From Squalus acanthias (taxonomy: Eukaryota): a stretch of DNA of 64,000 nt. The position numbers and the translations under genes are program-made. The stretch covers positions 248,001 through 312,000 of the forward strand of contig JASTWF010000336.1 of assembly GCA_030390025.1 (NCBI GenBank), read 5' to 3'. Under the pieces are notes generated by a model. That model did not search any database. It saw only the letters and a list, made by a program, of their open reading frames with translations, and had not been told where the DNA came from. This document shows, in pieces, positions 1 to 44,447 of this stretch (the stretch's first letter is position 1; each line of letters opens with the position of its first letter).

Positions 1-1
1 C

Positions 2-157: not shown

Positions 158-2896
158 GGGCTGCTGGCCGACGACGGATCTCTGGTCTCGGATCCGGAGG
201 GGATCAGCGCGGGGACCCGGGCCTATTACGGGGCTCTGTTCTCTCCGGATCCGTCCAGCGAGGATGCGCGCAGAGTTTTGTGGGAGGACCTGCCGAAGGT
301 CGGCCCGGAGGGCGCCGAAGAATTGGACGCTCCGCTAAGTTTGGCGGAGCTGACCGGCGCCCTGCGCCAGCTCTCGAGGGGAAAGTCCCCGGGGCTGGAC
401 GGGCTGACCGTGGAGTTCCACAGGGCGTTCTGGGACGTCTTGGGGGGCGACTACGCGCGGGTCCTGGGGGAAAGTCTGGCGACCGGGGAGATGCCCCTCT
501 CTTGGCGCAGGGCGGTTATCGTCCTGCTGTCCAAGAGGGGTGATCTCCGCCTTTTAAAAAACTGGCGCCCGGTCTCCCTCCTCAGCACGGACTATAAAAT
601 TTTTGCCAGGGCCATGTCTGCCCGCCTCGGCACCGTGCTGGCCCACATGATCCACCCCGACCAGTCCTACACGGTCCCGGGCCGGACAATCCACGACAAC
701 ATCCATCTGGTCCGGGACCTGGTCCACCTTTCCCAGAGGGCTGGTCTGTCGGTCGCCTTCCTTTCCCTGGATCAGGAGAAGGCGTTCGACAGGGTGGATC
801 ACGAGTATCTCTTCGGGACTCTGCGCGCATTCGGGTTCGGGACGCATTTCGTCGCCCGGATCCGACTTCTGTACACCGCCGCGGAGTGTCTCATTAAAGT
901 TAACGGGTCTTTGACGGCGCCCCTTCGCTTCGGGAGGGGGGTGCGTCAGGGATGCCCCATGTCCGGTCAGTTATATGCCGTTTGCGTGGAGCCTTTCCTG
1001 CGCCTCTTGCGGAAGAGGTTGACGGGACTGGCTCTGCAAGGGCCGGGCGTGGAGGTCGTCCTCTCGGCTTACGCCGATGACGTGCTCCTCATGGTCACGG
1101 ATCCCGTCGACCTGCGGAGGATGCGAGAATGCCAGCAGATTTACTCGGACGCATCCTCCGCCAGGATCAACTGGGAGAAATGTTCTGGACTCCTGGTGGG
1201 CCAGTGGCGGGTGGACTCCCTGCCGGAGGAGTTCAGGCCCTTTGCCTGGAGCACAACACACCTCCTCTACTTGGGAGTCTACCTCAGCCCTGCCGAGGAC
1301 ACCTGGCCGGCGAACTGGCAAGAGCTGGAGGCCAAGGTCACCGCTCGCCTAGGACGCTGGACGGGGTTGCTCCGAGTGTTGTCCTACAGGGGTCGAGCGC
1401 TGGTCATAAACCAGCTGGTGGCCGCCATGTTGTGGTACCGGTTGGTCACTTTGATCCCTCCCCCTGCGTTTGTCGCCAAGATACAGAAGATGCTCATCGA
1501 CTTCTTCTGGGACAAAAGGAAGCACTGGGTCTCTGCCGCGGTTCTGTGTCTCCCGCTTAGGGAGGGCGGTCAGGCGCTGGTGTGCCTTCGCACCCAGGCG
1601 GCGACTTTCCGTCTTCAGACGCTGCAGAGGTACCTTTACGTCGAGAATCCTCCCAGATGGTGTGCGCTGGCGACGTATTTCTTCCGCCAGATGCACGGCC
1701 TCAACTACGACACGCAGCTCCTGTTTGTGGAATTGGGCCGCACGCGAGCCTACCTGTGGGAGCTGCCTGTCTTTTACCAGGAACTGCTATGGGTCTGGAA
1801 CCAGGTCGCCTCCAGGCGGAGTTCTCCCCCGTCAGGAGTGGCGGCTCTCCTTCGGGAGCCGCTGTTCAGGAATCCGCACCTCCACGTCCGACGGATCGGC
1901 TGGCTGGCGGAGGGCAGGGCTGTGCCAGGCAAGGTGACCAGAGTCAGGGACCTGCTCGATGGCGGAGGAGCGGGCTGGATGGCGCCAGAGGAGTTGGCGC
2001 GGCGCCTCTCCTGGACAGACGTCTGGCGCGCGGCCAAAGCCATCGAGTTGCTGAAAGTGGCACTGGGCCCGGACTCCACTAGGTGTATCGAGGAGGCTCA
2101 AGCACGTGGGGCGATCCCGTCCGAACTGACCTCCGTTCGGACGGAATTCCTCATCGGCGCACGGCCCCGAAACCCCTCTCGGGAACCGGCGCCTCACAAC
2201 TTGAGCCGTCTCGGGGAAATGCCCTCCGTGCCCTTCAGTTCTGCACGGAGGGGTTTCCTGTACGGGCTGCTCCTGCACACTTTCCACTTTGTCATCTTCG
2301 CCTGCCGTCCGGACACGCCTTGGCGTGCCATCTTGCCGTCCGGCGGAGGCGAAGGTCCCCAATGGAGGGCTCTCTATGCGGGAGTACTCCCCTTTTCTAT
2401 TGGGGACATGGCCTGGAGGGTGTTGCACGGAGCAGTCCCGTGCAATCGGTTTTTAAGTAGGTTCACGGACTCCCAGGCCGCCTGTCTTTTTTGCGGCCTC
2501 GAGGAGTCCGTGTTCCACGTTTATGTGGAATGCGAGAGGTTGCAGCCCCTCTTTGAATATTTGAAGGGGCTGCTCCTCGCTTTTTGGTTGCACTTCAGTC
2601 CCACGCTCCTGATCTACGGTCACCCGGTGCGGAGGGGAGAGAGCAGGTCGGAGGACCTCCTCGTAGGACTGCTCCTGGGCCTGGCCAAAGTGGCCATTAA
2701 CAGGTCCAGGCAGCGGGCGGTCGAGGGGGTCGTTCGGCCCAATTGCCTGCCTCTCTTCCGCGGCTATGTTCGCGCCCGGGTGGCCCTGGAGATGGAGCAT
2801 GCGGTGTCCGCCGGCACACTTGAAGCCTTCCGAGACCGGTGGGCGCCGCAGGGACTGGAGTGCATCGTTTCCCCGGGAAATGTTATTTTAATTTAA
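158..2896 (+). CDS. Tx1-A1 ORF2, partial (RT plus C-terminal Cys domain, no endonuclease)
   Basis: Motifs KSPGLDG, WRPVSLL, LDQEKAFDRV, GVRQGCP, AYADD and CLFC...HVYVEC. Residues encoded before 158 in the ORF track are foreign sequence. Confidence 0.9.
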   Translation, partial: GLLADDGSLVSDPEGISAGTRAYYGALFSPDPSSEDARRVLWEDLPKVGPEGAEELDAPLSLAELTGALRQLSRGKSPGLDGLTVEFHRAFWDVLGGDYARVLGESLATGEMPLSWRRAVIVLLSKRGDLRLLKNWRPVSLLSTDYKIFARAMSARLGTVLAHMIHPDQSYTVPGRTIHDNIHLVRDLVHLSQRAGLSVAFLSLDQEKAFDRVDHEYLFGTLRAFGFGTHFVARIRLLYTAAECLIKVNGSLTAPLRFGRGVRQGCPMSGQLYAVCVEPFLRLLRKRLTGLALQGPGVEVVLSAYADDVLLMVTDPVDLRRMRECQQIYSDASSARINWEKCSGLLVGQWRVDSLPEEFRPFAWSTTHLLYLGVYLSPAEDTWPANWQELEAKVTARLGRWTGLLRVLSYRGRALVINQLVAAMLWYRLVTLIPPPAFVAKIQKMLIDFFWDKRKHWVSAAVLCLPLREGGQALVCLRTQAATFRLQTLQRYLYVENPPRWCALATYFFRQMHGLNYDTQLLFVELGRTRAYLWELPVFYQELLWVWNQVASRRSSPPSGVAALLREPLFRNPHLHVRRIGWLAEGRAVPGKVTRVRDLLDGGGAGWMAPEELARRLSWTDVWRAAKAIELLKVALGPDSTRCIEEAQARGAIPSELTSVRTEFLIGARPRNPSREPAPHNLSRLGEMPSVPFSSARRGFLYGLLLHTFHFVIFACRPDTPWRAILPSGGGEGPQWRALYAGVLPFSIGDMAWRVLHGAVPCNRFLSRFTDSQAACLFCGLEESVFHVYVECERLQPLFEYLKGLLLAFWLHFSPTLLIYGHPVRRGESRSEDLLVGLLLGLAKVAINRSRQRAVEGVVRPNCLPLFRGYVRARVALEMEHAVSAGTLEAFRDRWAPQGLECIVSPGNVILI

Positions 2897-2918
2897 TGCA
2901 CTCCAAGTTGTCCGCTTC

Positions 2919-3330
2919 GCAGAAGGCCCAAGGTGGAAGACCCGGAGGAGAGTGGCCTGGGCGGGAGGCCCAGCACGGAGAACCCCAGGCGGGGGGCCCA
3001 GGGCGGGGCGGCTGGTCGGCAGAGGTGGAGTCAGGAGATGCGGTTGCTTCACCCCGGGTGCTCGTGGGGAATGCCGGTGCGGAGGGTCCGGTGCAGAAGG
3101 CCCAAGGTGGAAGACCCAGAGGAGAGTGGCCTGGGCGGGAGGCCCAGCACGGAGAACCCCAGGCGGGGGGCCCAGGGCGGGGCGGCTGGTCGGCAGAGGT
3201 GGAGTCGGGAGATGCGGTTGATTCACCCCGGCTGCTCGCGGGGAATGCCGGTGCGGAGGGTCCGGTGCAGAAGGCCCAAGGTGGAAGACCCGGAGGAGAG
3301 TGGCCTGGGCGGGAGGCCCAGCACGGAGAA
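2919..3330 (+). repeat. 174-bp G-rich tandem repeat (about 2.4 units) in the Tx1-A 3' UTR
   Basis: GCAGAAGGCCCAAGG starts at 2919, 3093 and 3267. Confidence 0.92.
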
Positions 3331-4634
3331 CAATTGAGTGGATGGTCGGGTGGGTGGTGCCAGTGGGACTGGCGCAGAACAGGTTTCTTGGGTTATTGGA
3401 GTGGATGTTATATGTGGCATTTAGTTGGATTGTGATGGTGCTATGTGTTTGTACACTGTGGTGTTGAAATGGGTTGTTTTATGTGGAGTTAAGTGAGATG
3501 TATTATTTTAATATAAAAAAAAGTGTGGTATTGTTTGGGGGTATTTGTACTGTATTTTGATGGATGAATGTAATGGTTTTACTATGTAATTTGTATTATT
3601 GGTTTGAATAAAAGATTCACCCCGAGTGCGGTCCCAGGCGAGGACAGACGGAGGCAGAGGCTGAGGCTGCGAGGGACTCAGCTCAACTTGGTGCTACGTG
3701 AACGGGTGAGCGCCGTTTGCTGAGAAGAGGAGGGGAAAGGAGAGGTCTCTTTTCTCTGTGCCTAGAAGGAGAAGGAGCCACGAAGGACAGAGTGGAGACC
3801 TTTCCACCTCCACCACGCCTGCAGCTACAGCTACAACCACGACTGCTGCTGAGGTGAGAGAGGAGAGGAGAGGAGAGAGAGGAGACCAGCAACAACAGAG
3901 GGAAGCCTTTCCATCACTGCCTCCCCAACTGGTCTCCATTTCGAGAGAGGGAGAGAGGGGAGAACAAGACCAACATCTGCTTGGAAGGAGGGAGAGCGAG
4001 CCATCGAGAAGGAAAACAACATCGAGAGGTGGGTGTTAAAAAGGGCACTCTCCAAAAGACTTTGTATTTGAGGTGGGGGGAGGAAAGAAGAAGGAGAAGA
4101 CCGGGATAGCAAGGGGAGTGTGTGTGGCTCTTGCTAACAACTCGGCCACACACACCATCAACAAGCACCCCTTGCCTATTGCTTCACATTTTAGAACATT
4201 GTTAAGACCTGGTTGTAGACTGAGCCTGGGCATCTCCAGCTTTATTTTTTCCCAGGTGAAGACATCTTCTCCCCCCACCAGAAGAACATCAACAAAGACT
4301 TGTATTACATCGGAGAGTGCACCCCCCCCCAGGAGGCACCCACCCACCCACTATCCTGAGTGGCGAATAGGCCCGTGCGGCTTTCCTCCTTCCCACCCCC
4401 TCTCTCTCTCTCTCTCTGCCTCTCTCTAACGAGGCACCTCAAACCTTATTTATTACCCAATTGAGCAGAGGGGAGAAGGCCACTCCCAATTCCAATCATA
4501 AAAGGGAGAGGTGTGCCTTCTTTTTCTCAAAACAACCCCCTCTGCTCGGGGGAAAAGACAAAAAAACCCAAGGCCACTTAAACATCACCCGGCCTGTGAC
4601 TTGGGGTGGGTGTAGCCCTTTATACCACCTCAGT

Positions 4635-6723
4635 ATGGCGAGCACATCTTCGCCGGCGGCGGGGCAAGCAAGGTCGTACGCGGGTGTGGCAGCCACGGCC
4701 ACAGCTGGTCCCGCTGCTTCTGCTGCCCCGTCACCTTTCAGGCTATTGACAAAAAAGCTGGGGGTGAAGAGCTACACTCACCCCAACATGACCATAGAGG
4801 CTTGCGTCAAAGCCATGGCTGGGGTAATCGGCCCCTCAGCCATCGTTGCGGCCTCTAAAATGTACGGTAAGGCTGTGTTCTTCCTGCGGTCGGAGCGGGC
4901 GGTGTCCCTGGCCGTCACCGAGGGGCTCACCGTGGGCGGGACCTTCCTGCCGGTGGATCCGCTCGAGGCCACCGAGCAGCGACTCATACTATCGAATGTC
5001 CCGCCCTTTGTTCCGGTTGAGCTCCTCCTCCCCCACCTACGTCAACTGGGGGAGGTGAGGTCGGGGATTAATCCGATCCCGCTCGGCTGCAGGGAGGCCA
5101 GCCTCCGGCACGTCTTCTCCTTCCGGCGCCAGCTGTTTATCCAGCTGGCGCGGGAGGAAGACACGGAAGGCGCATTTAGCATAACACACGAGGGGACCGC
5201 CTACCGCGTCTTCTGGACGTCGGACGGTGTGCGGTGCCACGCCTGTAAGGAGGTGGGGCACATAAGAAAGAACTGCCCCGCCTCCAAGGCCGCCAAAGCA
5301 TCTGAGGCGGCCAAGGCTGGCGCCGCCGCCGCTCCTCCCCCTGTTTCTGTCCGCGCGTCTGCGACACCCGATGCGCGGTCGACGCCGGAGGTCAACGCCG
5401 TCGCGGCCTCCGGCGAAGGGGAGGGGGAGCGTCCGACTGGAAGGAAGGCGCGGAGCAAAAGCAAACACCTTCAGGCGGGTCCCCTTCACATATATGATGA
5501 CTTACCCGAGCTTACGCCCCTACACCTTGCGCGGGTGGCGGCGGAGTTCGAGAATGCGAGGGACCTTGTGCCCGGGCCTGCGCCCGCATCCGCCAAGGCG
5601 GCAAAATCGAGACCTGCGGCCGTGACCGGGCCCGGGACCCCCGAGCAGACCGATCGACAGGGGGGAGCGGAGGTGGAGGCCTCGGTATGCATGGAGGTCT
5701 CCCAACCTTCGTGTCCCTCCTCTTCGAAAAGGAGGCGCGACATCCTGGATGAGGGGGAGGACCGCGAGGAACGGGGTCCCCCCTCGCAAGGGGAGTCGTT
5801 GCCCGCCGCGGGTGCTGCGCCCCCCCCCACCGACACCATCACCGACATCCGGCAGGGGCCGCCTGTCCCCCGGGAGGGCATGACAGATGAGTCTGTCCAG
5901 CCTGTGCCTCCCGGGGATGGGGGAGAGGCCCTGCTCATGGGGGGGGGCCGCGGAACTACCCGCGGTGGGGAGTTACGCTGATCCGTTGTTTCTCGCCAGG
6001 TCGGGCATCCTGGGGACCGGGGCGGGCGAGGCCGATGAGGCAGAGCCCGCCGTGTACGGTCAGGACCACTCCCAGGCACTGCTCGACCTGGTTGAGCAAT
6101 ATAACCAGGGTACCTGGTCCGCTGGGTCGGAGGATGGTGGCGGTGAAGGGGAAGGCCCCCTGACTCCGTCTGCGACGCTGGCGCCGGGGTTGTTGAGGGA
6201 ACTGGCACTAATGTGCTCCCCGGTTTCCCTGTGCACCCCGGTGCCGGGGGCGGAGGGGGGCCCCGAGCCGCCGCCGCTTCCTGACCCGGCGCCTCTGGAG
6301 GAGCCCAGGGAGGACTCCTCTGCTGCCGATCCTGGGGGTGGGATCGGGGCAGAGGTAGGGCTGGCCGATGGCGACCCCCCGGAGGAGGACGGGGACCCGG
6401 CGGAGGACACTGAGGATGATATGGAATCCGTCGCCAGTGAGGCGGCGGATGCCCTCGTGCCCTCCTCCGGGTCCCCCCTCATCCCCGTTGTGGAACTCCG
6501 GGACTTTGTGGCCATGGGCCAGGGTCGCCAGGATATAATCCGGCTGGCCATCGATAAATGGTCGGATCTGGCGCTGCTCGTTTGCTCCGTCCGCGCCGCA
6601 GTCAAAACCATGGGCGCGGACGGGGGCGTGGGCCTGGCCGAGCGGCGTCGGATCCAGAATTTCCTCGCTGGGCTTGGAAGGGAGTGGCGGTCGACTAGCG
6701 GCCGCGCTCCCTCCTCCCGTTAG
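4635..6723 (+). pseudogene. Tx1-A2 ORF1 (Gag-like, CCHC knuckle), +1 frameshift
   Basis: Starts MASTSS and contains CHACKEVGHIRKNC. The G run at 5939-5947 has 9 G versus 8 in the open A3 copy, which may be a homopolymer error. Confidence 0.85.
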
Positions 6724-6754
6724 AGTAAGGTAGAGGTTGCACTATGCTCTTGTC

Positions 6755-9700
6755 ATGAAGATAACCATAGCCAGCCTCAACATCAACGGCAGCAGAGAGG
6801 CACGCCGTAGATTTAATAACTTCTCGTCCCTTCGGGAAGGGAGGCATGCGGTGTGCTTCCTGCAGGAAACTCACACCGTTCCGGGAGACGAGGCCACGTG
6901 GCTCCTGGAGTGGCGAGGAGGGGTCAGCATGAGTCACCTCTCCAACGTTTCCGGTGGGGTGGCTATCTTGCTGGCCCCGCATTTTCAGCCGGAGATCTTG
7001 GGGGTCAAGGAGCATGTGCCGGGCCGCTTGCTCCAGGTCACTGTTCGTCTGGGGGGCGTGCCGCTCCATTTAGTGAACGTGTACGCCCCCCAGCCCGGTG
7101 CGCAGCAAGTGCGCTTCTTCGATGAAGTGTCCGCTCTTCTGGGCACCGTCGACGTCGGCGAGTGCATCATCCTCGGGGGGGATTTTAATTGTACCCTCGA
7201 GGCGAGGGACCGTTCGGGCCCTCCGCGAAGCCTGACGGCGACGGTGAAGTTGAGGGACCTGGTCGGGTCCTTCGACTTGGTGGACGTCTGGCGAAATCTC
7301 CATCCCGACTCCAGCGCCTTCACTTGGGTGGGGTCTGGAGGAGGAAGGTCCAGAATCGACCGCCTTTATATTTCCCGGGCGTACGTCTCCTGCGTTCCGG
7401 CGGCTTCCATGCGGCCGGTGCCGTGCACGGACCACCACCTGGTGTGGGCGGAGCTCGCTCCGCTGCAGGCGCCGGGGGGGTCCGCGTACTGGCATTTTAA
7501 CAACCTGCTGCTGGAGGACGTGCGGTTCCGGGATTCGTTTCGCCGGTTCTGGGCCGACTGGAGAAGGAAGCAGGGGGGCTTCCCCTCCTTGAGGCTATGG
7601 TGGGACGTGGGCAAGGCTCACGTCCGTCTCTTCTGTCAGGAGTACGCGAAGGGGTCGACCAAGAGGCGGGAGGCCCGGGTCGGGCGATTGGAGAAAGAAG
7701 TGCTCGACCTGGAGTCCCGTCTCGGTCAAGTCGTCGAAGACCCGGCCCTGCGGAAGGTGTACGAAGAGAAGAAGGGCGCGCTGAAGGACCTGCAGCTGGT
7801 CGGGTCCCGAGGCGCGTACGTGAGGTCGCGGATCCAGTTCCTGCGGGACCTGGACCGCGGCTCCCCCTTCTTCTACTCGCTGGAAAAAAGACGAGGGGTC
7901 CGTAAGCAGCTCTTGGGGCTGCTGGCCGACGACGGATCTCTGGTCTCGGATCCGGAGGGGATCAGCGCGGGGACCCGGGCCTATTACGGGGCTCTGTTCT
8001 CTCCGGATCCGTCCAGCGAGGATGCGCGCAGAGTTTTGTGGGAGGACCTGCCGAAGGTCGGCCCGGAGGGCGCCGAAGAATTGGACGCTCCGCTAAGTTT
8101 GGCGGAGCTGACCGGCGCCCTGCGCCAGCTCTCGAGGGGAAAGTCCCCGGGGCTGGACGGGCTGACCGTGGAGTTCCACAGGGCGTTCTGGGACGTCTTG
8201 GGGGGCGACTACGCGCGGGTCCTGGGGGAAAGTCTGGCGACCGGGGAGATGCCCCTCTCTTGGCGCAGGGCGGTTATCGTCCTGCTGCCCAAGAGGGGTG
8301 ATCTCCGCCTTTTAAAAAACTGGCGCCCGGTCTCCCTCCTCAGCACGGACTATAAAATTTTTGCCAGGGCCATGTCTGCCCGCCTCGGCACCGTGCTGGC
8401 CCACATGATCCACCCCGACCAGTCCTACACGGTCCCGGGCCGGACAATCCACGACAACATCCATCTGGTCCGGGACCTGGTCCACCTTTCCCAGAGGGCT
8501 GGTCTGTCGGTCGCCTTCCTTTCCCTGGATCAGGAGAAGGCGTTCGACAGGGTGGATCACGAGTATCTCTTCGGGACTCTGCGCGCATTCGGGTTCGGGA
8601 CGCATTTCGTCGCCCGGATCCGACTTCTGTACGCCGCCGCGGAGTGTCTCATTAAAGTTAACGGGTCTTTGACGGCGCCCCTTCGCTTCGGGAGGGGGGT
8701 GCGTCAGGGATGCCCCATGTCCGGTCAGTTATATGCCGTTTGCGTGGAGCCTTTCCTGCGCCTCTTGCGGAAGAGGTTGACGGGACTGGCTCTGCAAGGG
8801 CCGGGCGTGGAGGTCGTCCTCTCGGCTTACGCCGATGACGTGCTCCTCATGGTCACGGATCCCGTCGACCTGCGGAGGATGCGAGAATGCCAGCAGATTT
8901 ACTCGGACGCATCCTCCGCCAGGATCAACTGGGAGAAATGTTCTGGACTCCTGGTGGGCCAGTGGCGGGTGGACTCCCTGCCGGAGGAGTTCAGGCCCTT
9001 TGCCTGGAGCACAACACACCTCCTCTACTTGGGAGTCTACCTCAGCCCTGCCGAGGACACCTGGCCGGCGAACTGGCAAGAGCTGGAGGCCAAGGTCACC
9101 GCTCGCCTAGGACGCTGGACGGGGTTGCTCCGAGTGTTGTCCTACAGGGGTCGAGCGCTGGTCATAAACCAGCTGGTGGCCGCCATGTTGTGGTACCGGT
9201 TGGTCACTTTGATCCCTCCCCCTGCGTTTGTCGCCAAGATACAGAAGATGCTCATCGACTTCTTCTGGGACAAAAGGAAGCACTGGGTCTCTGCCGCGGT
9301 TCTGTGTCTCCCGCTTAGGGAGGGCGGTCAGGCGCTGGTGTGCCTTCGCACCCAGGCGGCGACTTTCCGTCTTCAGACGCTGCAGAGGTACCTTTACGTC
9401 GAGAATCCTCCCAGATGGTGTGCGCTGGCGACGTATTTCTTCCGCCAGATGCACGGCCTCAACTACGACACGCAGCTCCTGTTTGTGGAATTGGGCCGCA
9501 CACGAGCCTACCTGTGGGAGCTGCCTGTCTTTTACCAGGAACTGCTATGGGTCTGGAACCAGGTCGCCTCCAGGCGGAGTTCTCCCCCGTCAGGAGTGGC
9601 GGCTCTCCTTCGGGAGCCGCTGTTCAGGAATCCGCACCTCCACGTCCGACGGATCGGCTGGCTGGCGGAGGGCAGGGCTGTGCCAGGCAAGGTGACCAGA

Positions 9701-10655
9701 GTCAGGGACCTGCTCGATGGCGGAGGAGCGGGCTGGATGGCGCCAGAGGAGTTGGCGCGGCGCCTCTCCTGGACAGACGTCTGGCGCGCGGCCAAAGCCA
9801 TCGAGTTGCTGAAAGTGGCACTGGGCCCGGACTCCACTAGGTGTATCGAGGAGGCTCAAGCACGTGGGGCGATCCCGTCCGAACTGACCTCCGTTCGGAC
9901 GGAATTCCTCATCGGCGCACGGCCCCGAAACCCCTCTCGGGAACCGGCGCCTCACAACTTGAGCCGTCTCGGGGAAAATGCCCTCCGTGCCCTTCAGTTC
10001 TGCACGGAGGGGTTTCCTGTACGGGCTGCTCCTGCACACTTTCCACTTTGTCATCTTCGCCTGCCGTCCGGACACGCCTTGGCGTGCCATCTTGCCGTCC
10101 GGCGGAGGCGAAGGTCCCCAATGGAGGGCTCTCTATGCGGGAGTACTCCCCTTTTCTATTGGGGACATGGCCTGGAGGGTGTTGCACGGAGCAGTCCCGT
10201 GCAATCGGTTTTTAAGTAGGTTCACGGACTCCCAGGCCGCCTGTCTTTTTTGCGGCCTCGAGGAGTCCGTGTTCCACGTTTATGTGGAATGTGAGAGGTT
10301 GCAGCCCCTCTTTGAATATTTGAAGGGGCTGCTCCTCGCTTTTTGGTTGCACTTCAGTCCCACGCTCCTGATCTACGGTCACCCGGTGCGGAGGGGAGAG
10401 AGCAGGTCGGAGGACCTCCTCGTAGGACTGCTCCTGGGCCTGGCCAAAGTGGCCATTAACAGGTCCAGGCAGCGGGCGGTCGAGGGGGTCGTTCGGCCCA
10501 ATTGCCTGCCTCTCTTCCGCGGCTATGTTCGCGCCCGGGTGGCCCTGGAGATGGAGCATGCGGTGTCCGCCGGCACACTTGAAGCCTTCCGAGACCGGTG
10601 GGCGCCGCAGGGACTGGAGTGCATCGTTTCCCCGGGAAATGTTATTTTAATTTAA
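6755..10655 (+). pseudogene. Tx1-A2 ORF2 (APE endonuclease-RT), +1 frameshift near 9975
   Basis: Motifs SLNING, LQETH, GGDFN, SRIDR, TDH and YADD. GGGGAAAATG here versus GGGGAAATG in A1 and A3. Confidence 0.88.
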
Positions 10656-10677
10656 TGCACTCCAAGTTGTCCGCTTC

Positions 10678-11089
10678 GCAGAAGGCCCAAGGTGGAAGAC
10701 CCGGAGGAGAGTGGCCTGGGCGGGAGGCCCAGCACGGAGAACCCCAGGCGGGGGGCCCAGGGCGGGGCGGCTGGTCGGCAGAGGTGGAGTCAGGAGATGC
10801 GGTTGCTTCACCCCGGGTGCTCGTGGGGAATGCCGGTGCGGAGGGTCCGGTGCAGAAGGCCCAAGGTGGAAGACCCAGAGGAGAGTGGCCTGGGCGGGAG
10901 GCCCAGCACGGAGAACCCCAGGCGGGGGGCCCAGGGCGGGGCAGCTGGTCGGCAGAGGTGGAGTCGGGAGATGCGGTTGATTCACCCCGGCTGCTCGCGG
11001 GGAATGCCGGTGCGGAGGGTCCGGTGCAGAAGGCCCAAGGTGGAAGACCCGGAGGAGAGTGGCCTGGGCGGGAGGCCCAGCACGGAGAA
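10678..11089 (+). repeat. 174-bp tandem repeat in the A2 3' UTR
   Basis: Copy of 2919-3330. Confidence 0.9.
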
Positions 11090-11376
11090 CAATTGAGTGG
11101 ATGGTCGGGTGGGCGGTGACAGTGGGACTGGCGCGGAACAGGTTTCTTGGGTTATTGGAGTGGATGTTATATGTGGCATTTAGTTGGATTGTGATGGTGC
11201 TATGTGTTTGTACACTGTGGTGTTGAAATGGGTTGTTTTATGTGGAGTTAAGTGAGATGTATTATTTTAATATAAAAAAAAGTGTGGTATTGTTTGGGGG
11301 TATTTGTACTGTATTTTGATGGATGAATGTAATGGTTTTACTATGTAATTTGTATTATTGGTTTGAATAAAAGATT

Positions 11377-11786
11377 CACACCCCTTGGATGTTCCGGCCT
11401 TCTTCTTTTTCTTCTTTCCTCCCCCCACCTACAAAACAAAGTCTCTGGGAGAGTGCCCCAGAATCACACCCACCTGTAGCTGTTGTTCTTTCCTTCCTCC
11501 CTCCTTCCAAACAGATGATGTTTGTTGTTGATGTTTTCTCCCCTCTCTCCCTCTCCTGAAATGGAGGCCAATTGAGGAGGCAGTGTGGAAAGGCCTCTCC
11601 TCTGTTGTTAATGGCCTTGGCCTTCCTTTCCTTCTCCTTCTCCTTCTCCTGTCCTGTCCTCTCTCTCCAGGCACCTCAGTAGTGGTTGTTGGTTGTTGGT
11701 GGTGGTCTGCTGTCTGGTCTCCTTCTCCTTCTCCTCTTCCTGCTCACAGAGACCACCACTCTGCTGCTGCTGCTGCTGCTCCTCAC
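11377..11786 (-). mobile_element. Distal 5' UTR remnant of a Tx1-B copy (B0) whose body is presumably left of the window
   Basis: Homologous to 18553-18966 and 33508-33911. Starts at the (CA)nCCCC site. Confidence 0.88.
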
Positions 11787-11832
11787 AAGCTTGTGATTTC
11801 AAATAAAGCTGTTGGACTATAACCTGGTGTTG
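11787..11832 (+). repeat. 46-bp Penelope-derived target duplication between B copies
   Basis: AAGCTTGTGATTTCAAATAAAGCTGTTGGACTATAACCTGGTGTTG is identical at 11787, 18967 and 33912, and is homologous to 57705-57750. Confidence 0.9.
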
Positions 11833-11898
11833 CTCTTTTTGGTTTGTCAAATCAAAATTTACTGTAATCAATTAAAACTTTAAATGAAACTTAACAAA

Positions 11899-14800
11899 TC
11901 AAATCAAAATTTGGAAGTCCGGGGTGACGATGCACTCCAGTCCCCGCGGCGCCCACCGGTCGCGGAAAAACTCAAGCGTGCCGGCGGACACCGCGTGCTC
12001 CATCTCCAGGGCCACCCGGGCGCGAACATGGCCGCGGAAGAGAGGCAGGCAATCGGGCCGAACGACCCCCTCGACCGCCCGCTGCCTGGACCAATTAATG
12101 GCTTTCTTGGCCAGGCCCAGGAGCAGTCCTACGAGGAGGTCCTCCGACCTACCCGCTCCCCTCCGCACCGGGTGACCGTAGATCAGGAGCGTGGGGCTGA
12201 AGTGCAACCAGAAATTGAGGAGCAGCCCCTTCAAATAATGAAAGAGGGGCTGCAACCTCTCACACTCAATATAAATGTGATAGACGGACTCCTCCAGGCC
12301 GCAGAAATGACAAGCAGCCTGGGAGTCCGTAAACCTACTTAAAATCCTATTGCACGGGACTGCTCCGTGCAACACCCTCCAGGCCAAGTCCCCAATAGAA
12401 CAAGGGAAGACTCCCGCGTAGAGAGCCTTCCAATGGGGACCTTCGCCTCCGCCGGACGGCAGGATGGTACGCCAAGGCGTGTCCGGACGGCAGACGAAGA
12501 TGGCAAAGTGGAGAGTGTGCAGGAGCAGCCCGTACAGGAAACGCCTCCGTGCGGATTGAAAGGGCACGGAGGGCATTTCTCCGAGAAGGCTCAAGTGGTG
12601 AGGCGGCGGCTCCCGAGGGAGGATTCGGGGCCGGGCGCCGATAAGGAATTCCGTCCGAACGGAGGTCAGTTCGGACGGGATCGCCCCACGTGCTTGAGCC
12701 TCCTCGACACACCTAGTGGAGACGGGGCCCAGTGCCACTTTTAGCGACTCGATGGCTTTGACCGCGAGCCGGACGTTGACCCAAGACATGCGCCTCGCCA
12801 ACTCCTCCGGCGCCATCCAGCCCGCTCCTCCGCCATCGAGCAGGTCCCCGACTCTGGTCACCTTACCGGGCACAGCCCTGCCCTCCGCCAGCCAGCCGAA
12901 CCCGCGGTCGTGGAGGTGCGGATTCCTGAACAGCGGCTCCCGAAGGACGGCCGCCGCTCCTGACGGGGGAGAACTGCGCTCGGAGGCGACGCTGTTCCAA
13001 ACCCATAGCAGTTCCTGGTAGAAGACAGGCAGCTCCCGCAGGCTGGCACGCGTGCCACCCACTCTCACAAACAGGAGCAGCGTGTCGTAATTGAGGCCGT
13101 GCAGCTGGCGGAAGAAATACGTCGCCAGCGCACGCCACCTAGGAGGATTCTCCACGTACAGGTATCTCTGCAGCGTCTGAAGACGGAAAGTCGCCGCCTG
13201 GGTGCGAAGGCACACCAGCGCCTGACCGCCCTCCCTAAGCGGGAGACTCAAAACCGCGGCAGAGACCCAGTGCTTCCTTTTGTCCCAGAAGAAGTCGACG
13301 AGCTTCTTCTGCATCTTGGCGACAAACGCAGGGGGAGGGATCAAAGTGACCAACCGGTACCACAACATGGCGGCCACCAGCTGGTTTATGACCAGCGCTC
13401 GACCCCTGTAGGACAACACTCTGAGCAGTCCTGTCCAGCGCCCTAGGCGAGCGGTGACTTTGGCCTCCAGCTCTTGCCAGTTCGCCGGCCAGGCGTCCTC
13501 GGCCGGGCTGAGGTAGACTCCCAGGTAGAGGAGGTGCGTGGTGCTCCAGGCGAAAGGCCCGAACTCCTCCGGCAGGGAGTCCACCTGCCATGGGCCCACC
13601 AGGAGTCCAGAACATTTCTCCCAGTTGATCTTGGCGGAGGATGCGTCCGAGTAAATCTGCTGGCATTCTCGCATCCTCCGCAAGTCGACGGGATCCGTGA
13701 CCGCGAGGAGCACGTCATCGGCGTAAGCCGAGAGGACCACCTCCACGCCCGGCCCTTGCAGAGCCAGTCCCGTCAACCTCTTCCGCAAGAGGCGCAGGAA
13801 AGGCTCCACGCAAACGGCGTATAACTGACCGGACATGGGGCATCCCTGACGCACCCCCCTCCCGAAGCGAAGGGGCGCCGTCAAAGACCCGTTAACTTTA
13901 ATGAGACACTCCGCGGCGGCGTACAGAAGTCGGATCCGGGCGACGAAATGCGTCCCGAACCCGAATGCGCGCAGAGTCCCGAAAAGATACTCGTGATCCA
14001 CCCTGTCGAACGCCTTCTCCTGATCCAGGGAAAGGAAGGCGACCGACAGACCAGCCCTCTGGGAATGGTGGACCAGGTCCCGGACCAGATGGATGTTATC
14101 GTGGATACTCCGGCCCGGGACCGTGTAGGACTGGTCGGGGTGGATCATGCGGGCCAGCACGGTGCCAAGGCGAGCAGACATAGCCCTGGCGAAAATTTTG
14201 TAGTCCGTGCTGAGGAGGGAGACCGGGCGCCAGTTCTTAAGTAGGCGGAGATCGCCCTTCTTGGGCAGCAGGACGATGACCGCCCTGCGCCAAGAGAGGG
14301 GCATCTCCCCGGTCGCCAGACTTTCCCCCAGGACCCGCGCGTAGTCGTCCCCCAAGACGTCCCAGAACGCCCTGTGGAACTCCACGGTCAGCCCGTCCAG
14401 CCCCGGGGACTTGCCCCTCGAGAGCTGGCGCAGGGCGCCGGTCAGCTCCGCCAGGCTTAGCGGAGCTTCTAAATTCTCGGCGCCCTCCGGGCCGACCTTC
14501 GGCAGGTCCTCCCACAAAACTCTGCGCGCATCCTCGCTGGACGGATCCGAAGAGAACAGAGCCCCGTAATAGGCCCGGGCCTCCGCGCTGATGCCCTCCG
14601 GATCCGAGACCAGAGATCCGTCGTCGGCCAGCAGCCCCAAGAGCTGCTTACGGACCCCCCGTCTTTTTTCCAGCGAGTAGAAGAAGGGGGAGCCGCGGTC
14701 CAGGTCCCGCAGGAACTGGATCCGCGACCTCACGTACGCGCCTCGGGACCCGACCAGCTGCAGGTCCTTCAGCGCGCCCTTCTTCTCTTCGTACACCTTC

Positions 14801-15798
14801 CGCAGGGCCGGGTCCTCGACGACTTGACCGAGACGGGACTCCAGGTCGAGCACTTCTTTCTCCAATCGCCCGACCCGGGCCTCCCGCCTCTTGGTCGACC
14901 CCTTCGCGTACTCCTGACAGAAGACGCGGACGTGAGCCTTGCCCACGTCCCACCATAGCCTCAAGGAGGGGAAGCCTCCCCGCTTCCTTCTCCAGTCGGC
15001 CCAGAACCGGCGAAACGAATCCCGGAACCGCGCGTCCTCCAGCAGCAGGTTGTTAAAATGCCAGTACGCGGACCCCCCCCGCGCGCGCAGCGGAGCGAGC
15101 TCCGCCCACACCAGGTGGTGGTCCGTGCACGGCACCGGCCGCATGGAAGCCGCCGGAACGCAGGAGACGTACGCCCGGGAAATGTAAAGGCGGTCGATTC
15201 TGGACCTTCCTCCTCCAGACCTCACGCTCGTGAAGGCGCTGGAGTCGGGATGGAGATTTCGCCAGACGTCCACCAAGTCGAAGGACCCGACCAGGTCCCG
15301 CAACTTCTCCATCGCCGCTGGGCTTCGCGGGGGACCCGACCGGTCCCGCGCCTCGAGGGTACAATTGAAATCCCCCCCGAGGATGACGCACTCGCCCACG
15401 TCGATGGAGCCCAGAAGAGCGGACACTTCTCCGAAGAAGCGCACTTGCTGCGCACCGGTCCGGGGGGCGTACACGTTCACTAAATGGAGCGGCACGCCTC
15501 CCAGGCGAACAGTGACCTGGAGCAAGCGGCCCGGCACGTGCTCCTTGACCCTCAAGATCTCCGGCTGAAAATGCGGGGCCAGCAAGACAGCCACCCCGCA
15601 GGAATTGTTGGAGAGGTGACTCATGCTGACCCCTCCTTGCCACTCCAGGAGCCACGTGGCCTCGTCTCCCGGAACGGTGTGGGTTTCTTGCAGGAAGCAC
15701 ACCGCATATTTCCCGTCCCGAAGGACCGAGAAGTTATTGAATCTACGGCGCGCCTCCCTGCTGCCGTTGATGTTGAGGCTGGCTATGGTTATCTTCAT
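11899..15798 (-). CDS. Tx1-B1 ORF2, intact (1299 aa APE-RT)
   Basis: Open from MKITIASLNING to the stop, with EN, RT (YADD) and CHFC...HIYIEC motifs. Confidence 0.93.
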   Translation of the reverse strand: MKITIASLNINGSREARRRFNNFSVLRDGKYAVCFLQETHTVPGDEATWLLEWQGGVSMSHLSNNSCGVAVLLAPHFQPEILRVKEHVPGRLLQVTVRLGGVPLHLVNVYAPRTGAQQVRFFGEVSALLGSIDVGECVILGGDFNCTLEARDRSGPPRSPAAMEKLRDLVGSFDLVDVWRNLHPDSSAFTSVRSGGGRSRIDRLYISRAYVSCVPAASMRPVPCTDHHLVWAELAPLRARGGSAYWHFNNLLLEDARFRDSFRRFWADWRRKRGGFPSLRLWWDVGKAHVRVFCQEYAKGSTKRREARVGRLEKEVLDLESRLGQVVEDPALRKVYEEKKGALKDLQLVGSRGAYVRSRIQFLRDLDRGSPFFYSLEKRRGVRKQLLGLLADDGSLVSDPEGISAEARAYYGALFSSDPSSEDARRVLWEDLPKVGPEGAENLEAPLSLAELTGALRQLSRGKSPGLDGLTVEFHRAFWDVLGDDYARVLGESLATGEMPLSWRRAVIVLLPKKGDLRLLKNWRPVSLLSTDYKIFARAMSARLGTVLARMIHPDQSYTVPGRSIHDNIHLVRDLVHHSQRAGLSVAFLSLDQEKAFDRVDHEYLFGTLRAFGFGTHFVARIRLLYAAAECLIKVNGSLTAPLRFGRGVRQGCPMSGQLYAVCVEPFLRLLRKRLTGLALQGPGVEVVLSAYADDVLLAVTDPVDLRRMRECQQIYSDASSAKINWEKCSGLLVGPWQVDSLPEEFGPFAWSTTHLLYLGVYLSPAEDAWPANWQELEAKVTARLGRWTGLLRVLSYRGRALVINQLVAAMLWYRLVTLIPPPAFVAKMQKKLVDFFWDKRKHWVSAAVLSLPLREGGQALVCLRTQAATFRLQTLQRYLYVENPPRWRALATYFFRQLHGLNYDTLLLFVRVGGTRASLRELPVFYQELLWVWNSVASERSSPPSGAAAVLREPLFRNPHLHDRGFGWLAEGRAVPGKVTRVGDLLDGGGAGWMAPEELARRMSWVNVRLAVKAIESLKVALGPVSTRCVEEAQARGAIPSELTSVRTEFLIGARPRILPREPPPHHLSLLGEMPSVPFQSARRRFLYGLLLHTLHFAIFVCRPDTPWRTILPSGGGEGPHWKALYAGVFPCSIGDLAWRVLHGAVPCNRILSRFTDSQAACHFCGLEESVYHIYIECERLQPLFHYLKGLLLNFWLHFSPTLLIYGHPVRRGAGRSEDLLVGLLLGLAKKAINWSRQRAVEGVVRPDCLPLFRGHVRARVALEMEHAVSAGTLEFFRDRWAPRGLECIVTPDFQILI

Positions 15799-15823
15799 CT
15801 CAGAAGCATAGTGCAACCTCTAC

Positions 15824-17981
15824 CTAACGGAGGGGAGGGAGGGCGGTCACTGACGACCGCCACTCCCTCAGCAGCCCAGTGTGGAACGTCTTGAGCTGAC
15901 GCAGCTCGAGCCGGCCAACGTCCTTGTCCGCGCCCATGATTTTAACGGCGGCGCGGACGGACACGACGAGCAGCGTCAGCTCCGACCACTTGTCGAGGGC
16001 CAGCCAGATCTTCTTGTGACGACCCTGGCTCATGGCCATAAAATCCCGGAGTTCCCCTACGGGGATGAGGGGAGAGTCGGTGAAGGGCACGAGGGCGTCC
16101 ATCGCCTCGCTGCCGATGGACTCCAAATCGTCCTCGATGCCCCCCACCGAGTCCCCGTCCTCCTCCGGGAGGTCGTCACCGGCGGCCAACCCGTCCGTCA
16201 CACAGGGTGCAGCGAACGGCTCGGCCGCACCGGCCGGCCCCGCCTCCGTCACGATCCCACCCCCAGGATCGGTGGCAGAGGAGTCCACCCTGGGCTCCTT
16301 CAGGGGCGCCGGGCCGGGAGGCGGCGGCGGCGGTTCGGGGCCCCCCCCCCGCCTCAGGCGCCGGGGCGACCGGAGAAACCGGGGAGAAAATAATCCCAAA
16401 TTCCTCCAGCACGTCCGGCGCCAACAACAGAGACGGAGTCAGGGGGCTTTCCGTCTCCCCGCCACCAACCTCCGACCCAGCGGGCTGGGGATTGCTACAC
16501 TCCTCCACCAGGTCGAGCAGTCCCTGGGAGATATCTGGGTTATAAAAGGCGGGCTCGGCTTCAGCCTCTTTGGCCTCGCCCGCCCCAGTCCCCAGGACGC
16601 CCGACCCGGCGAGGAGCAACGGTTCAGGTTCTACATTTTCTTCCGCGGGTTGTTCCGCGCCCCCCCCCACGGGCAGGGTCTCTTCCCCATCCCCGGGAGG
16701 CACAGGTCGGACAGACTCGGCTGTCTCACCCTCCCGAGGGACAGACGACCCCTGCCGATCGCGCGCGACGATGACGGTGGTGGGGTGGGGCGCAGCACCC
16801 GCGGCGGGCGACTGCCCCCCTTTTGCGGAGGGACCTTCCTCCTCGCAGTCCTCCTGCTGGGGGCGGAGCTTTCTTTTTAACGTATTGGGACCCGGAGAGG
16901 GGGAGGCCTCCATGTCTGCTGGGGCCTCCCTCTCTGCCCCCTTCCGACGACTGGGTTTCTTGGGCCCCTCGGGCCCGAGCCCGGCCGCAGGTCTTGATTC
17001 AGCTGCCTCAGCAGTTGCGGTCACGGTCACGGGCCCGGGCACGAGGACCCCCCCAGTCTCATGCGTCCCGACCAACTCCGCGATATACTCGGGCGTGAGT
17101 TCGGTCAATTCCGATGTTTCCTCCGCGAGGGGATCCGCCCTTAGGTGTTTAGTTTTCCTACGCGCCTTCCTTCCCCCCGGACGCTCTCCCTCCTCCCCGC
17201 CGGAGGCCGTGGTGGTGTTGGCCTCCGATTTCAACCGCGCATCCGTCGCCGTCGACGCGCGGACAGTATCAGGGGGAGGGGGGGCGGCAGCGCCAACCCT
17301 GGCCGCGCCAGGTGTCGTGGCGGCCTTGGAGGCGGGGCAGTTTTTGCGGACGTGCCCCACCTCCTTACAGGCGTAGCACCGCGCGCCGTCCGAGGTCCAG
17401 AAGACGCGGTGGGCGGTCCCCCCGTGGAGCACCGTGAACGCGCCGTCCGCGTCCTCCTCCCGCGCCAGCCGGACGAAAAGCTGGCGCCGGAAGGAGAAGA
17501 CGTGCCGAAGGCTGGCTTCCCGGAAGCCGAGCGGGATGGGTGTGATCCCCGACCTCACCTCCCCCAGTTGACGTAGGTGGGGGAGGAGGAGCTCACCCGG
17601 AACAAAGGGCGGGACGTTGGAAACCACAATCCTTTGCGCGGTGGCCTCAAGGGGGTCCACCGGCAGGAAGGTCCCGCCCACGGTGAGCCCCTTCTCGATG
17701 GCCAGGGACACCGCCCGCTCCGACCCCAGGAAGAACACAGCCTTGCCGTACATTTTAGAGGCGGCGACGATGGCTGAAGGGCCGACAACCCCAGCCATGG
17801 CTTTAACGCACGCCTCTATAGTCATGTTGGGGTGAGTGTAGCTCTTGACCCCATTCTTCCTCGTAAGGAGGGTAAAAGGTGACGGGGTAACAGGAGGACT
17901 CGTGGCTGCGGCCGTGGCCGCGGCTGCCACGCTCGCATACGTCCTCGCTGCCCCCGCCACCGACGAAGATGTACTCGCCAT
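15824..17981 (-). pseudogene. Tx1-B1 ORF1 with a +1 shift at a G10 run (16341-16350)
   Basis: CYACKEVGHVRKNC knuckle. Homology to the A ORF1 C-terminus (GGPEPPP...LDKWS) resumes in another frame after the G10. Confidence 0.82.
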
Positions 17982-18966
17982 AATGGAGGGTTCTTTAAGG
18001 GCTACACTCACCCCAAGTCACAGGCCTGAAGGTGTTAATGGCCTCGGTTTTTTATTTCTGTTTTCCCCTGAGCAGAGGGAGCTCTTAAATTGAAGGCACA
18101 CCTCTCCCTTTAGTTGATTGAATTAGGAGAGGGGCCTTCTCCCCTCTGCTCAATAGGTACTTAATTAAAAGATAATGAGGTGCCTCTTAGAGAGAGAGGC
18201 AGAGAGAGACAAGAGACAAAGAGAGAGAGAGAGGGGGGTGGGAAGGAGGGAAGCCGCAAGGGCAGGGTCGCCACTCAGGATGGTGGGTGGGTGGGTGTTG
18301 GCAGGGGGGTGCACTCTCCGATGTAATAAAAGTCTTTGGTGGTGGTCTTCTGGTGGGGGGAGAAGATGTCTTCATCTGGGATAGCTGGAGATGCCCAGGC
18401 TCAGTCCTGCACCAGGTCTTAACGATGCCCAATTGGATTAAATTAATTGGGGAACTTCACCTAGGCAGCTCCAGCTGTCCCAGGTCAGGCAATGGGAAAG
18501 GGGTGTTTAATATGGTGTGTGCGGCCTAGCTTTTACAAAAGCCACACACACACACACCCCTTGGATGTTCCGGCCTTCTTCTTTTTCTTCTTTCCTCCCC
18601 CCACCTACAAAACAAAGTCTCTGGGAGAGTGCACCAGAATCACACCCACCTGTAGCTGTTGTTTTTTCCTTCCTTCCTCCTTCCAAACAGATGATGGATG
18701 TTTTGTTGTTTTCTCCCCTCTCTCCCTCTCCTAAAATGGAGGCCAATTGAGGAGGCAGTGTGGAAAGGCCTCTCCTCTGGTGTTAATGGCCTTGGCCTTC
18801 CTTTCCTTCTTTTCTTTCTCCTCTCCTGTCCTCTCTCTCCAGGCACCTCAGTAGTTGTGGTTGTAGTGGTTGTTGTTGGTGGTGGCCTGCTGTCTGGTCT
18901 GCTTCTCCTTCTCCTCTTCCTGCTCACAGAGACCACCACTCTGCTGCTGCTGCTGCTGCTCCTCAC

Positions 18967-19012
18967 AAGCTTGTGATTTCAAATAAAGCTGTTGGACTAT
19001 AACCTGGTGTTG
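18967..19012 (+). repeat. 46-bp target duplication between B1 and B2
   Basis: Identical to 11787-11832. Confidence 0.9.
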
Positions 19013-19080
19013 ATCTTTTTGGTTTGACAGAACGCAAATTTACTGTAAATCAATTAAAACTTGAAATGAAACTTAATAAA

Positions 19081-22000: not shown

Positions 22001-22980
22001 ACGACTTGACCGAGACGGGACTCCAGGTCGAGCACTTCTTTCTCCAATCGCCCGACCCGGGCCTCCCGCCTCTTGGTCGACCCCTTCGCGTACTCCTGAC
22101 AGAAGACGCGGACGTGAGCCTTGCCCACGTCCCACCATAGCCTCAAGGAGGGGAAGCCTCCCCGCTTCCTTCTCCAGTCGGCCCAGAACCGGCGAAACGA
22201 ATCCCGGAACCGCGCGTCCTCCAGCAGCAGGTTGTTAAAATGCCAGTACGCGGACCCCCCCCGCGCGCGCAGCGGAGCGAGCTCCGCCCACACCAGGTGG
22301 TGGTCCGTGCACGGCACCGGCCGCATGGAAGCCGCCGGAACGCAGGAGACGTACGCCCGGGAAATGTAAAGGCGGTCGATTCTGGACCTTCCTCCTCCAG
22401 ACCTCACGCTCGTGAAGGCGCTGGAGTCGGGATGGAGATTTCGCCAGACGTCCACCAAGTCGAAGGACCCGACCAGGTCCCGCAACTTCTCCATCGCCGC
22501 CGGGCTTCGCGGGGGACCCGACCGGTCCCGCGCCTCGAGGGTACAATTGAAATCCCCCCCGAGGATGACGCACTCGCCCACGTCGATGGAGCCCAGAAGA
22601 GCGGACACTTCTCCGAAGAAGCGCACTTGCTGCGCACCGGTCCGGGGGGCGTACACGTTCACTAAATGGAGCGGCACGCCTCCCAGGCGAACAGTGACCT
22701 GGAGCAAGCGGCCCGGCACGTGCTCCTTGACCCTCAAGATCTCCGGCTGAAAATGCGGGGCCAGCAAGACAGCCACCCCGCAGGAATTGTTGGAGAGGTG
22801 ACTCATGCTGACCCCTCCTTGCCACTCCAGGAGCCACGTGGCCTCGTCTCCCGGAACGGTGTGGGTTTCTTGCAGGAAGCACACCGCATATTTCCCGTCC
22901 CGAAGGACCGAGAAGTTATTGAATCTACGGCGCGCCTCCCTGCTGCCGTTGATGTTGAGGCTGGCTATGGTTATCTTCAT
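19081..22980 (-). CDS. Tx1-B2 ORF2, intact (1299 aa)
   Basis: Open reading frame with few differences from B1 ORF2. Confidence 0.93.
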   Translation of the reverse strand: MKITIASLNINGSREARRRFNNFSVLRDGKYAVCFLQETHTVPGDEATWLLEWQGGVSMSHLSNNSCGVAVLLAPHFQPEILRVKEHVPGRLLQVTVRLGGVPLHLVNVYAPRTGAQQVRFFGEVSALLGSIDVGECVILGGDFNCTLEARDRSGPPRSPAAMEKLRDLVGSFDLVDVWRNLHPDSSAFTSVRSGGGRSRIDRLYISRAYVSCVPAASMRPVPCTDHHLVWAELAPLRARGGSAYWHFNNLLLEDARFRDSFRRFWADWRRKRGGFPSLRLWWDVGKAHVRVFCQEYAKGSTKRREARVGRLEKEVLDLESRLGQVVEDPALRKVYEEKKGALKDLQLVGSRGAYVRSRIQFLRDLDRGSPFFYSLEKRRGVRKQLLGLLADDGSLVSDPEGISAEARAYYGALFSSDPSSEDARRVLWEDLPKVGPEGAENLEAPLSLAELTGALRQLSRGKSPGLDGLTVEFHRAFWDVLGDDYARVLGESLATGEMPLSWRRAVIVLLPKKGDLRLLKNWRPVSLLSTDYKIFARAMSARLGTVLARMIHPDQSYTVPGRSIHDNIHLVRDLVHHSQRAGLSVAFLSLDQEKAFDRVDHEYLFGTLRAFGFGTHFVARIRLLYAAAECLIKVNGSLTAPLRFGRGVRQGCPMSGQLYAVCVEPFLRLLRKRLTGLALQGPGVEVVLSAYADDVLLAVTDPVDLRRMRECQQIYSDASSAKINWEKCSGLLVGPWQVDSLPEEFGPFAWSTTHLLYLGVYLSPAEDAWPANWQELEAKVTARLGRWTGLLRVLSYRGRALVINQLVAAMLWYRLVTLIPPPAFVAKMQKKLVDFFWDKRKHWVSAAVLSLPLREGGQALVCLRTQAATFRLQTLQRYLYVENPPRWRALATYFFRQLHGLNYDTQLLFVRVGGTRASLRELPVFYQELLWVWNSVASERSSPPSGAAAVLREPLFRNPHLHDRGFGWLAEGRAVPGKVTRVGDLLDGGGAGWMAPEELARRMSWVNVRLAVKAIESLKVALGPVSTRCVEEAQARGAIPSELTPVRTEFLIGARPRILPREPPPHHLSLLGEMPSVPFQSARRRFLYGLLLHTLHFAIFVCRPDTPWRTILPSGGGEGPHWKALYAGVFPCSIGDLARRVLHGAVPCNRILSRFTDSQAACHFCGLEESVYHIYVECERLQPLFHYLKGLLLNFWLHFSPTLLIYGHPVRRGEGRSEDLLVGLLLGLAKKAINWSRQRAVEGVVRPDCLPLFRGHVRARVALEMEHAVSAGTLEFFRDRWAPRGLECIVTPDFQILI

Positions 22981-23005
22981 CTCAGAAGCATAGTGCAACC
23001 TCTAC

Positions 23006-28845: not shown

Positions 28846-28876
28846 AGTAAGGTAGAGGTTGCACTATGCTCTTGTC

Positions 28877-32776: not shown

Positions 32777-32798
32777 TGCACTCCAAGTTGTCCGCTTC

Positions 32799-34708: not shown

Positions 34709-35029
<321 letters not shown>

Positions 35030-35942: not shown

Positions 35943-36251
<309 letters not shown>

Positions 36252-44413: not shown

Positions 44414-44447
44414 TTTGTGTTGTGTTTGGTAGGAAGAGTCGAGTTGT

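Follow-up and report, generated by a model that had tools for sequence, protein, structure and literature searches.

Copies of two LINE families, A and B, nested in a 64,000-nucleotide stretch of the Squalus acanthias genome (the window), together with their relatives across the genome, point to a target that is set mostly outside the β-hairpin of the ORF2 endonuclease (EN) and probably by pairing of the RNA 3′ end with the nicked DNA, a reading to which we give a probability of about 45%. The original prediction had taken this hairpin as the target switch, and that claim is largely contradicted: the same hairpin is found with several targets, and the same target is found with both hairpins. 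Tx1 families with specific targets, some of them inside other transposons, have been described before (excerpts of PMC4494074). What is new here is a family-by-residue table in which the hairpin does not act as the switch, together with a pair of copies one EN residue apart that makes the question testable.

The nest occupies bases 158-33957 of the window and consists of five LINE copies of the two families, arranged as follows (a slash marks the junction of an element with its flank):
158..3617, plus strand: A1, a 5′-truncated family A copy without EN; 3′ end GATT/CACCCC
3623..11376, plus strand: A2, a full-length family A copy whose head is a copy of the target
11377..11832, minus strand: family B 5′ leader, severed by the A2 insertion at the leader's (CA)nCCCC site
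11833..19012, minus strand: B1, a full-length family B copy with open ORF2 (15798-11899), its head starting with a target copy
19013..25738, minus strand: B2, a family B copy in tandem with B1, with open ORF2 (22980-19081); 3′ end GAT/CAACACCAGG
25739..33497, plus strand: A3, a full-length family A copy, antisense in the B2 leader, with a 16-bp duplication, (CA)6CCCC
33498..33957, minus strand: 5′ leader of B2, parted from the B2 body by A3
33958..34030, plus strand: host repeat 5′ of B2, the target of B, reading GAGAAGTCGCA^CAACACC on the minus strand

A third B copy holds A2 and A1 in its leader, and B1 and B2 stand head to tail on the minus strand within the host repeat, which may be Penelope-like. 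Investigation of Rfam showed no match in seven flank loci, this repeat included. In A2, ORF1 (from 4635) and ORF2 (6755-10655) are both frameshifted, ORF2 in the A-run at 9975-9978, and the 3′-UTR contains a 174-bp repeat. In A3, ORF1 (26758-28845) is open and ORF2 (28877-32776) is broken by an in-frame stop at 31274-31276. ORF1 of B1 (from 17981) is frameshifted. ORF2 is open in both B1 and B2 (1299 aa), with private changes relative to 42/42 other B copies at L907 and S1046 in B1 and at R1140 in B2. At window 1-157, unrelated sequence abuts the 5′-truncated A1.

Pfam domains in ORF2 are PF03372 (APE EN), PF00078 (RT) and, weakly and below the cut-off, PF13966; a C-terminal zinc knuckle is also present, and ORF1 has a CCHC motif. 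ORF2 is 50% identical to Xenopus Tx1L (UniRef YTX2, P0018; 1299 residues) and the EN is 27-29% identical to that of L1, placing ORF2 closer to Tx1L than to L1. The mean ORF2 divergence within A and B is 0.3-0.7%. A and B are young Tx1-type LINE families from one radiation. The signs of TPRT were found, namely precise 3′ ends, 5′ truncation and target duplication. ORF1 of A stops at about 418 codons in many copies (11/15 at 415-418; L061-L080) and ORF2 is open in 11/15; the common ORF1 frameshift may be inherited or may be a homopolymer error of the assembly.

The 3′ junctions were sampled in the best 30 copies per family with queries that stopped before the flank. The results showed that A and B land at different, reproducible sites (30/30 each), as had been predicted. 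The B junction is GAT/CAACACCAGGTTA in 30/30 of these copies and in 29/30 of a second, position-ordered sample, confirming the CAACACC expected for B. For A, where CACAC had been expected, the junction is GATT/CAC in 30/30 copies (three being the window's own), and the motif is only CAC followed by A or C. The exact 18-mer of the B target has 103,499 copies in the genome, about 1% of all CAACA words; against the approximately 1% expected for a 5-mer, the 29/30 copies on target represent a preference about 100-fold beyond it, and B therefore reads well beyond 5 bases. The 30 A sites comprise 13 B leaders, 8 zinc-finger 5′ regions or A heads, and 9 sites elsewhere; compared with that of B, the target of A is weaker, consisting of a short motif plus hot spots.

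Full-length copies begin with a copy of their own target, which accounts for the tandem arrays. Short 5′-truncated B copies were also seen stacked in tandem at one site, with 13-17-base duplications between them (L033, L034, L048, L049 and L342). Outside transposons, A recurrently enters a site in the 5′ region of C2H2 zinc-finger genes (4/5 loci have C2H2 motifs no more than 1.5 kb away), and the A head is a copy of this site (L002, L008, L012, L022, L025, L066 and L070). The A leader itself has the site that A uses in the B leader (window 4096-4140 compared with 18536-18575), except that a T separates (CA)n from CCCC. This is possibly a partial self-avoidance, although A still inserts a few bases from the interrupted site in its own leader (L062 and L067).

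The four EN clusters in which A and B had been said to differ are real and fixed:
6941..6967, plus strand: SNVSGGVAI (V65, at the position of L1 K70; G67; I71)
7082..7096, plus strand: YAPQP (Q113, at the position of L1 N118; P114)
7226..7249, plus strand: RSLTATVK (160-164)
7319..7360, plus strand, A2: family A hairpin FTWVGSGGGRSRID, residues 189-202 (W191, G193), from the translation
29441..29482, plus strand, A3: family A hairpin FTWVGSGGGRSRID
15193..15234, minus strand, B1: family B hairpin FTSVRSGGGRSRID (S191, R193), from the translation
22375..22416, minus strand, B2: family B hairpin FTSVRSGGGRSRID

W191/G193 were found in 15/15 full-length A copies and S191/R193 in 40/42 B-site copies. 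A sequencing error as the origin of W191S was discarded, as TGG>AGC is a fixed two-base codon change. By contrast, the description of A and B as a minimal, near-isogenic pair fails, since 23/240 EN residues and 106 ORF2 residues differ and the four clusters hold 11/23 of the fixed EN differences. The fixed differences amount to 9.6% in the EN, 3-4% in the linker and RT, 10.3% (30/290) in the thumb/wrist and 14.3% (34/237) in the C-terminus. The A/B dN/dS values were 0.42, 0.41 and 0.43 for the EN, thumb/wrist and C-terminus, respectively, and positive selection on the EN was rejected because its dN/dS is not above that of the C-terminal half. A and B are near-identical in parts of the linker and RT (ORF2 codons 290-390 and 600-690); the synonymous divergence there is 0.055, compared to 0.18 in the C-terminus, which suggests sequence exchange between the families.

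The EN differences cluster beyond chance (18/23 with a neighbour within 3 residues, p=0.004). In the alignment with L1-EN, residue 65 corresponds to K70, 71 to I76, 113 to N118, 167 to N169, 191 to F193 and 193 to S195, so that three of the four clusters are at DNA-facing positions (65, 113 and, in the hairpin stem, 191/193). In L1-EN, K70, N118 and P197/H198 of the loop tip touch the DNA, and the contact is almost only via the backbone (excerpts of PMC8565326). The loop tip SGGG of the hairpin is identical across all families, A and B included. A structure model of the EN showed strands at 191-193 and 197-199, and its top Foldseek matches were L1-EN structures (TM 0.86-0.89).

Sister families were located by a search with an intermediate EN, and the genome was found to contain at least five (A, B, C, D and E). 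C has a B-like EN and joins TAAG in 25/30 sampled ends (18 dispersed) and CAG in 5/30. D has an A-like EN and a TACAAG site in 13/13 full-length copies, and E joins TACAC in 26/30 sampled ends. Target duplications, typically of 12-15 bases, were seen in 25/30 sampled copies of E, 17/25 of C, 24/30 with CAG and 6/30 of B, the copies without a visible duplication being mostly too long for the 5′ end to be seen. A total of 95 full-length copies were typed at residues 191/193; L072, L075, L137, L148, L151, L169 and truncated copies were left out, and the near-identical pairs L145/L150, L146/L159 and L133/L135 put the independent counts of C and C2 below those of their rows:
A: 15 WVG-type
B site: 40 S/R, 2 W/G
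C: 13 W/G, 1 C/G, 4 S/R
C2: 2 W/G
D: 11 W/G, 2 W/R
E: 4 S/R, 1 G/R

The WVG hairpin occurs with CAC, TACAAG, TAAG and CAG sites, and the SVR hairpin with CAACACC, TACAC and TAAG sites. The hairpin is insufficient to specify the site, a robust result based on whole families. It is probably not necessary for the site either, judging from C and from two B-site copies with WVG (L131 and L132) at two different target copies; these are two events only, the ORF2 of both is now broken, and they could have been moved in trans. Hairpin codons 190-193 behave like a 4-base patch swapped between lineages, with neighbouring sites keeping the family state; recombinant copies are few.

Two further candidates were rejected. 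R113Q was dismissed as a switch as the 3/42 B-site copies with Q113 remain at the site of B, and L075, which might have passed for a family A member whose EN is hybrid, proved to be of D type with a 3′ piece from A and was excluded from the counts. Full-length C copies have a shared leader start and mostly no upstream duplication (L134, L140, L144, L145, L167, L169, L356, L357 and L360), and many of them may be passive cargo of a downstream LINE and not independent target choices, in which case the hairpin patch may postdate their insertion. With a query taken from a WVG copy, 6/9 dispersed C copies were nearer to a WVG copy and 3/9 to an SVR copy, by margins of 2-7 bases, too narrow for a firm assignment. 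A search for further full-length E copies gave B copies instead.

To follow the target label along the element, trees were built from 45 subsampled copies with six labels; the C-terminal tree (codons 771-1260) left out three D copies that carry deletions and drew on a subsample of A, B and D. The results showed 5 label changes (the minimum) in the C-terminal tree, 7 in the EN tree and 6 in the EN tree without the hairpin codons. The AU test was not decisive: C as one clade was not rejected on the EN tree (p=0.06) and was rejected on the C-terminal tree (p=1e-5, paraphyly). Judged by these trees, the target follows the 3′ half of the element, within which the C-terminus and the RNA end are linked and cannot be parted by a tree. 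The genomic data point, short of proof, to the opposing outcome named in the original prediction, with specificity lying in the 3′ end or the C-terminal region.

Within C, the motif shifts with the last bases of the element, from ..AAAAGAG/TAAG to ..AAAAGAAG/CAG. The sub-lineage ending in AAAAGAAG joins CAG in 29/30 sampled copies (of 35 in the genome; L288 was left out of this comparison), and codons 1158-1297, compared to a depth of at least 5 copies, contain no amino-acid change that tells TAAG from CAG copies. The match in the flank fades with distance: TAAG is followed by A in 12/18 and then by A in 11/18. The base just before the A tracks the lineage (T 14/17, C 22/24 and T 25/25). In a B variant ending in GAGG (152 copies), the junction has G where 8/9 traced targets had C; as the two differ, the base would come from the element and the B nick would lie at C^A, a pyrimidine-purine step like that of L1. 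The WVG hairpin was rejected as the cause of this variant, since 16/16 further full-length copies have SVR. The single full-length copy of the CAG sub-lineage (L167) has S199T, seen in no other C copy; it was discarded as a CAG marker because, with 17/18 genome matches fetched, 16 were copies of F, an older family, and one was a D copy.

The junctions have neither poly(A) nor a repeat tail. In A, AATAAA lies 5 bases before the junction; cleavage normally falls shortly downstream of AATAAA, and would therefore fall inside the flank. In the mechanism that we favour, the EN would nick the bottom strand loosely, at or beside a pyrimidine-A step of the top strand, akin to the T^A cut of L1, and the transcript would run beyond the end of the element into its own flank, so that the RNA ends in target sequence. 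Reverse transcription would start only where the nicked strand pairs with this RNA end, and such primer pairing would have to cover 3-5 bases in A, C and E and no fewer than 9-10 in B. If a copy landed at a new word and became a source, it would pass that word on with the inherited flank, retargeting the lineage without any change of enzyme, and the target copy at the head would rebuild the site and yield tandem arrays. One observation speaks against reading by the RNA end: if B nicks after the base that tracks the lineage, simple primer pairing cannot read that base. Trans-mobilisation or template switching can explain the single chimeras.

The chief alternative, which we hold to be unlikely but deserving of weight, is that the whole EN sets the target through a few joint residues (65/67, 71, 113, 167 and 191/193) and that discordant copies are chimeras, cargo or trans-moved. 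Excerpts of PMC1950540 report that isolated Tx1L-EN is site-specific alone, its nicks in vitro being confined almost entirely to its own site, and an EN swap retargets SART1 (as cited in excerpts of PMC7265360). The clustering of the EN differences (p=0.004), the place of residues 65 and 113 at L1 DNA-contact positions, the lineage-tracking base before the A and the possible cargo status of C copies also fit this explanation. Residue 167 supports it as well. The majority ENs of B and C differ at four residues, and R167Q divides the two almost perfectly (42/42 versus 18/18 copies), the exceptions L169/L358 and L360 being single copies that are possibly chimeric. However, residue 167 lies on a helix without reported DNA contact, and the explanation requires that one helix residue or a buried V/I change turn a 13-base target into one of 4-5 bases. 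In addition, EN dN/dS is not raised, Q113 copies stay at the site of B, and A and E have nearly one word in common (Y-ACAC/Y-AC) yet differ at about 20 EN positions.

If the 3′ half of ORF2 were decisive as protein, its wrist and C-terminal zinc-finger regions would determine the site by reading the target DNA or unzipping it. That A/B divergence is highest there, that eight B residues (G747, E940, F957, V1026, V1031, H1122, K1124 and F1295) differ from both C and E, that the target follows the C-terminal tree and that in L1 the CTD both melts the target DNA and binds it (excerpts of PMC7617806) are all consistent with such a role. We nevertheless regard it as improbable, because the TAAG and CAG sub-lineages lack a diagnostic change in the last 140 codons, the L1 contacts described in the same excerpts are to the backbone with base edges exposed, and the linkage of the C-terminus with the RNA end deprives the tree of discriminating power. 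Least credible by far is a hairpin change W191S/G193R that switches between CAC and CAACACC, the form originally proposed. The change is fixed between A (15/15) and most B copies (40/42) and falls in the hairpin which, in L1-EN, reaches into the minor groove (excerpts of PMC8565326). However, each hairpin occurs with three or more targets, both occur at the sites of B and of C, the loop tip is invariant, and a published loop graft failed to transfer specificity: a Tx1L loop on L1-EN altered nicking and the Tx1L site was not transferred (Repanas 2007; excerpts of PMC1950540).

The idea of a natural test bed for retargeting survives with a pair other than A/B. L278 (B site) and L347 (C site) both have an open ORF2 of 1299 aa and differ in the EN only by R167Q, with 23 residues different elsewhere. 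L278 and the E copy L345 differ in the EN by V71I (L1 I76) and one private change, V71I being present in 4/5 E copies. In APE-type LINEs, whole-EN swaps can change the target, loop grafts do not, and extra factors have been postulated. Young copies with open ORF2, natural hairpin swaps and the one-EN-residue pair make the EN, the C-terminus and the RNA end separable. Should the RNA end prove decisive, gene insertion programmed by RNA would have a candidate in a vertebrate LINE whose target spans 13 bases; otherwise, the causal residues are already down to about two dozen.

Pairing by the RNA end has precedents. RNA-DNA complementarity has been proposed as a possible extra targeting factor (excerpts of PMC1950540). 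In L1 (the snap-velcro model), SART1Bm and R1Bm, pairing of the 3′ RNA with the nicked strand shapes the start of reverse transcription: for L1 primer pairing the last 4 bases matter, and up to the last 4-10 (excerpts of PMC3649969), while SART1Bm relies on AGG pairing and R1Bm needs target sequence downstream (excerpts of PMC7265360). In those systems pairing refines a site set by the EN, whereas here it is proposed as the main heritable selector among sister families. It is possible, as a more tentative extension of RNA-end pairing, that this vertebrate LINE radiation retargets by inheriting its own 3′ flank, the read-through RNA end serving as a short built-in guide. If so, sisters with essentially identical ENs would switch between a 13-base site and several words of 4-5 bases, and insertion would be reprogrammable by the last bases of the RNA alone.

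Tx1L of Xenopus laevis, the type element of the Tx1 clade, resembles A and B in its APE endonuclease, RT and C-terminal zinc knuckle, and in inserting at a fixed site in another transposon (excerpts of PMC4494074). Unlike Tx1L, the present families have other targets, and a hairpin three residues shorter with a Gly-rich tip and Ser or Trp in place of the Tx1L Tyr, and a single genome harbours at least five sisters that are active or were so recently. In Xenopus, the related Tx1 elements Tx1L and Tx2L differ in target and form a natural pair whose ENs have been compared; the families described here seem much more closely related to one another. The related families Keno, Kibi, Koshi and crocodilian Tx1-Mar choose multicopy genes, microsatellites and transposons (excerpts of PMC4494074), whereas the targets here (the end of a retroelement, the 5′ regions of zinc-finger genes, leaders of LINEs and short words dispersed in the genome) differ between families with ENs one or two residues apart. 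The L1-EN hairpin grafts LTx and LR1 (PDB 2v0r and 2v0s; excerpts of PMC1950540) concern the same loop, amount to the loop swap suggested in the original prediction and are the best structural match of the EN model; they were engineered across distant families, in contrast to the natural swap, 4 bases wide, in an almost identical scaffold seen here. A literature search, outside Repbase and subscription journals, found no paper that deals with these families or with a change of target between sisters this close.

The older family F combines the SVR hairpin with T199 (L1 S202 position) and has a distinct 3′ end (L367-L382). In F, 11/14 visible ends run into TCAAAATCCAGCC-like sequence; F was kept out of the evidence, as its end and its target had not been told apart.

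To the right of the nest, the window holds a histone cluster with an H4 gene (starting MTGRGK), an H3 fragment, two H2A genes and a second, inverted H4 block:
34718-35029, about 36080-36190, 37045-37611, 44360-44960 and 46291-46869: histone cluster, right of the nest

Beyond it, a long degenerate tandem repeat of 41/46 bp extends over 49900-61300, with RT fragments at 47958-49259 and 55660-57291.
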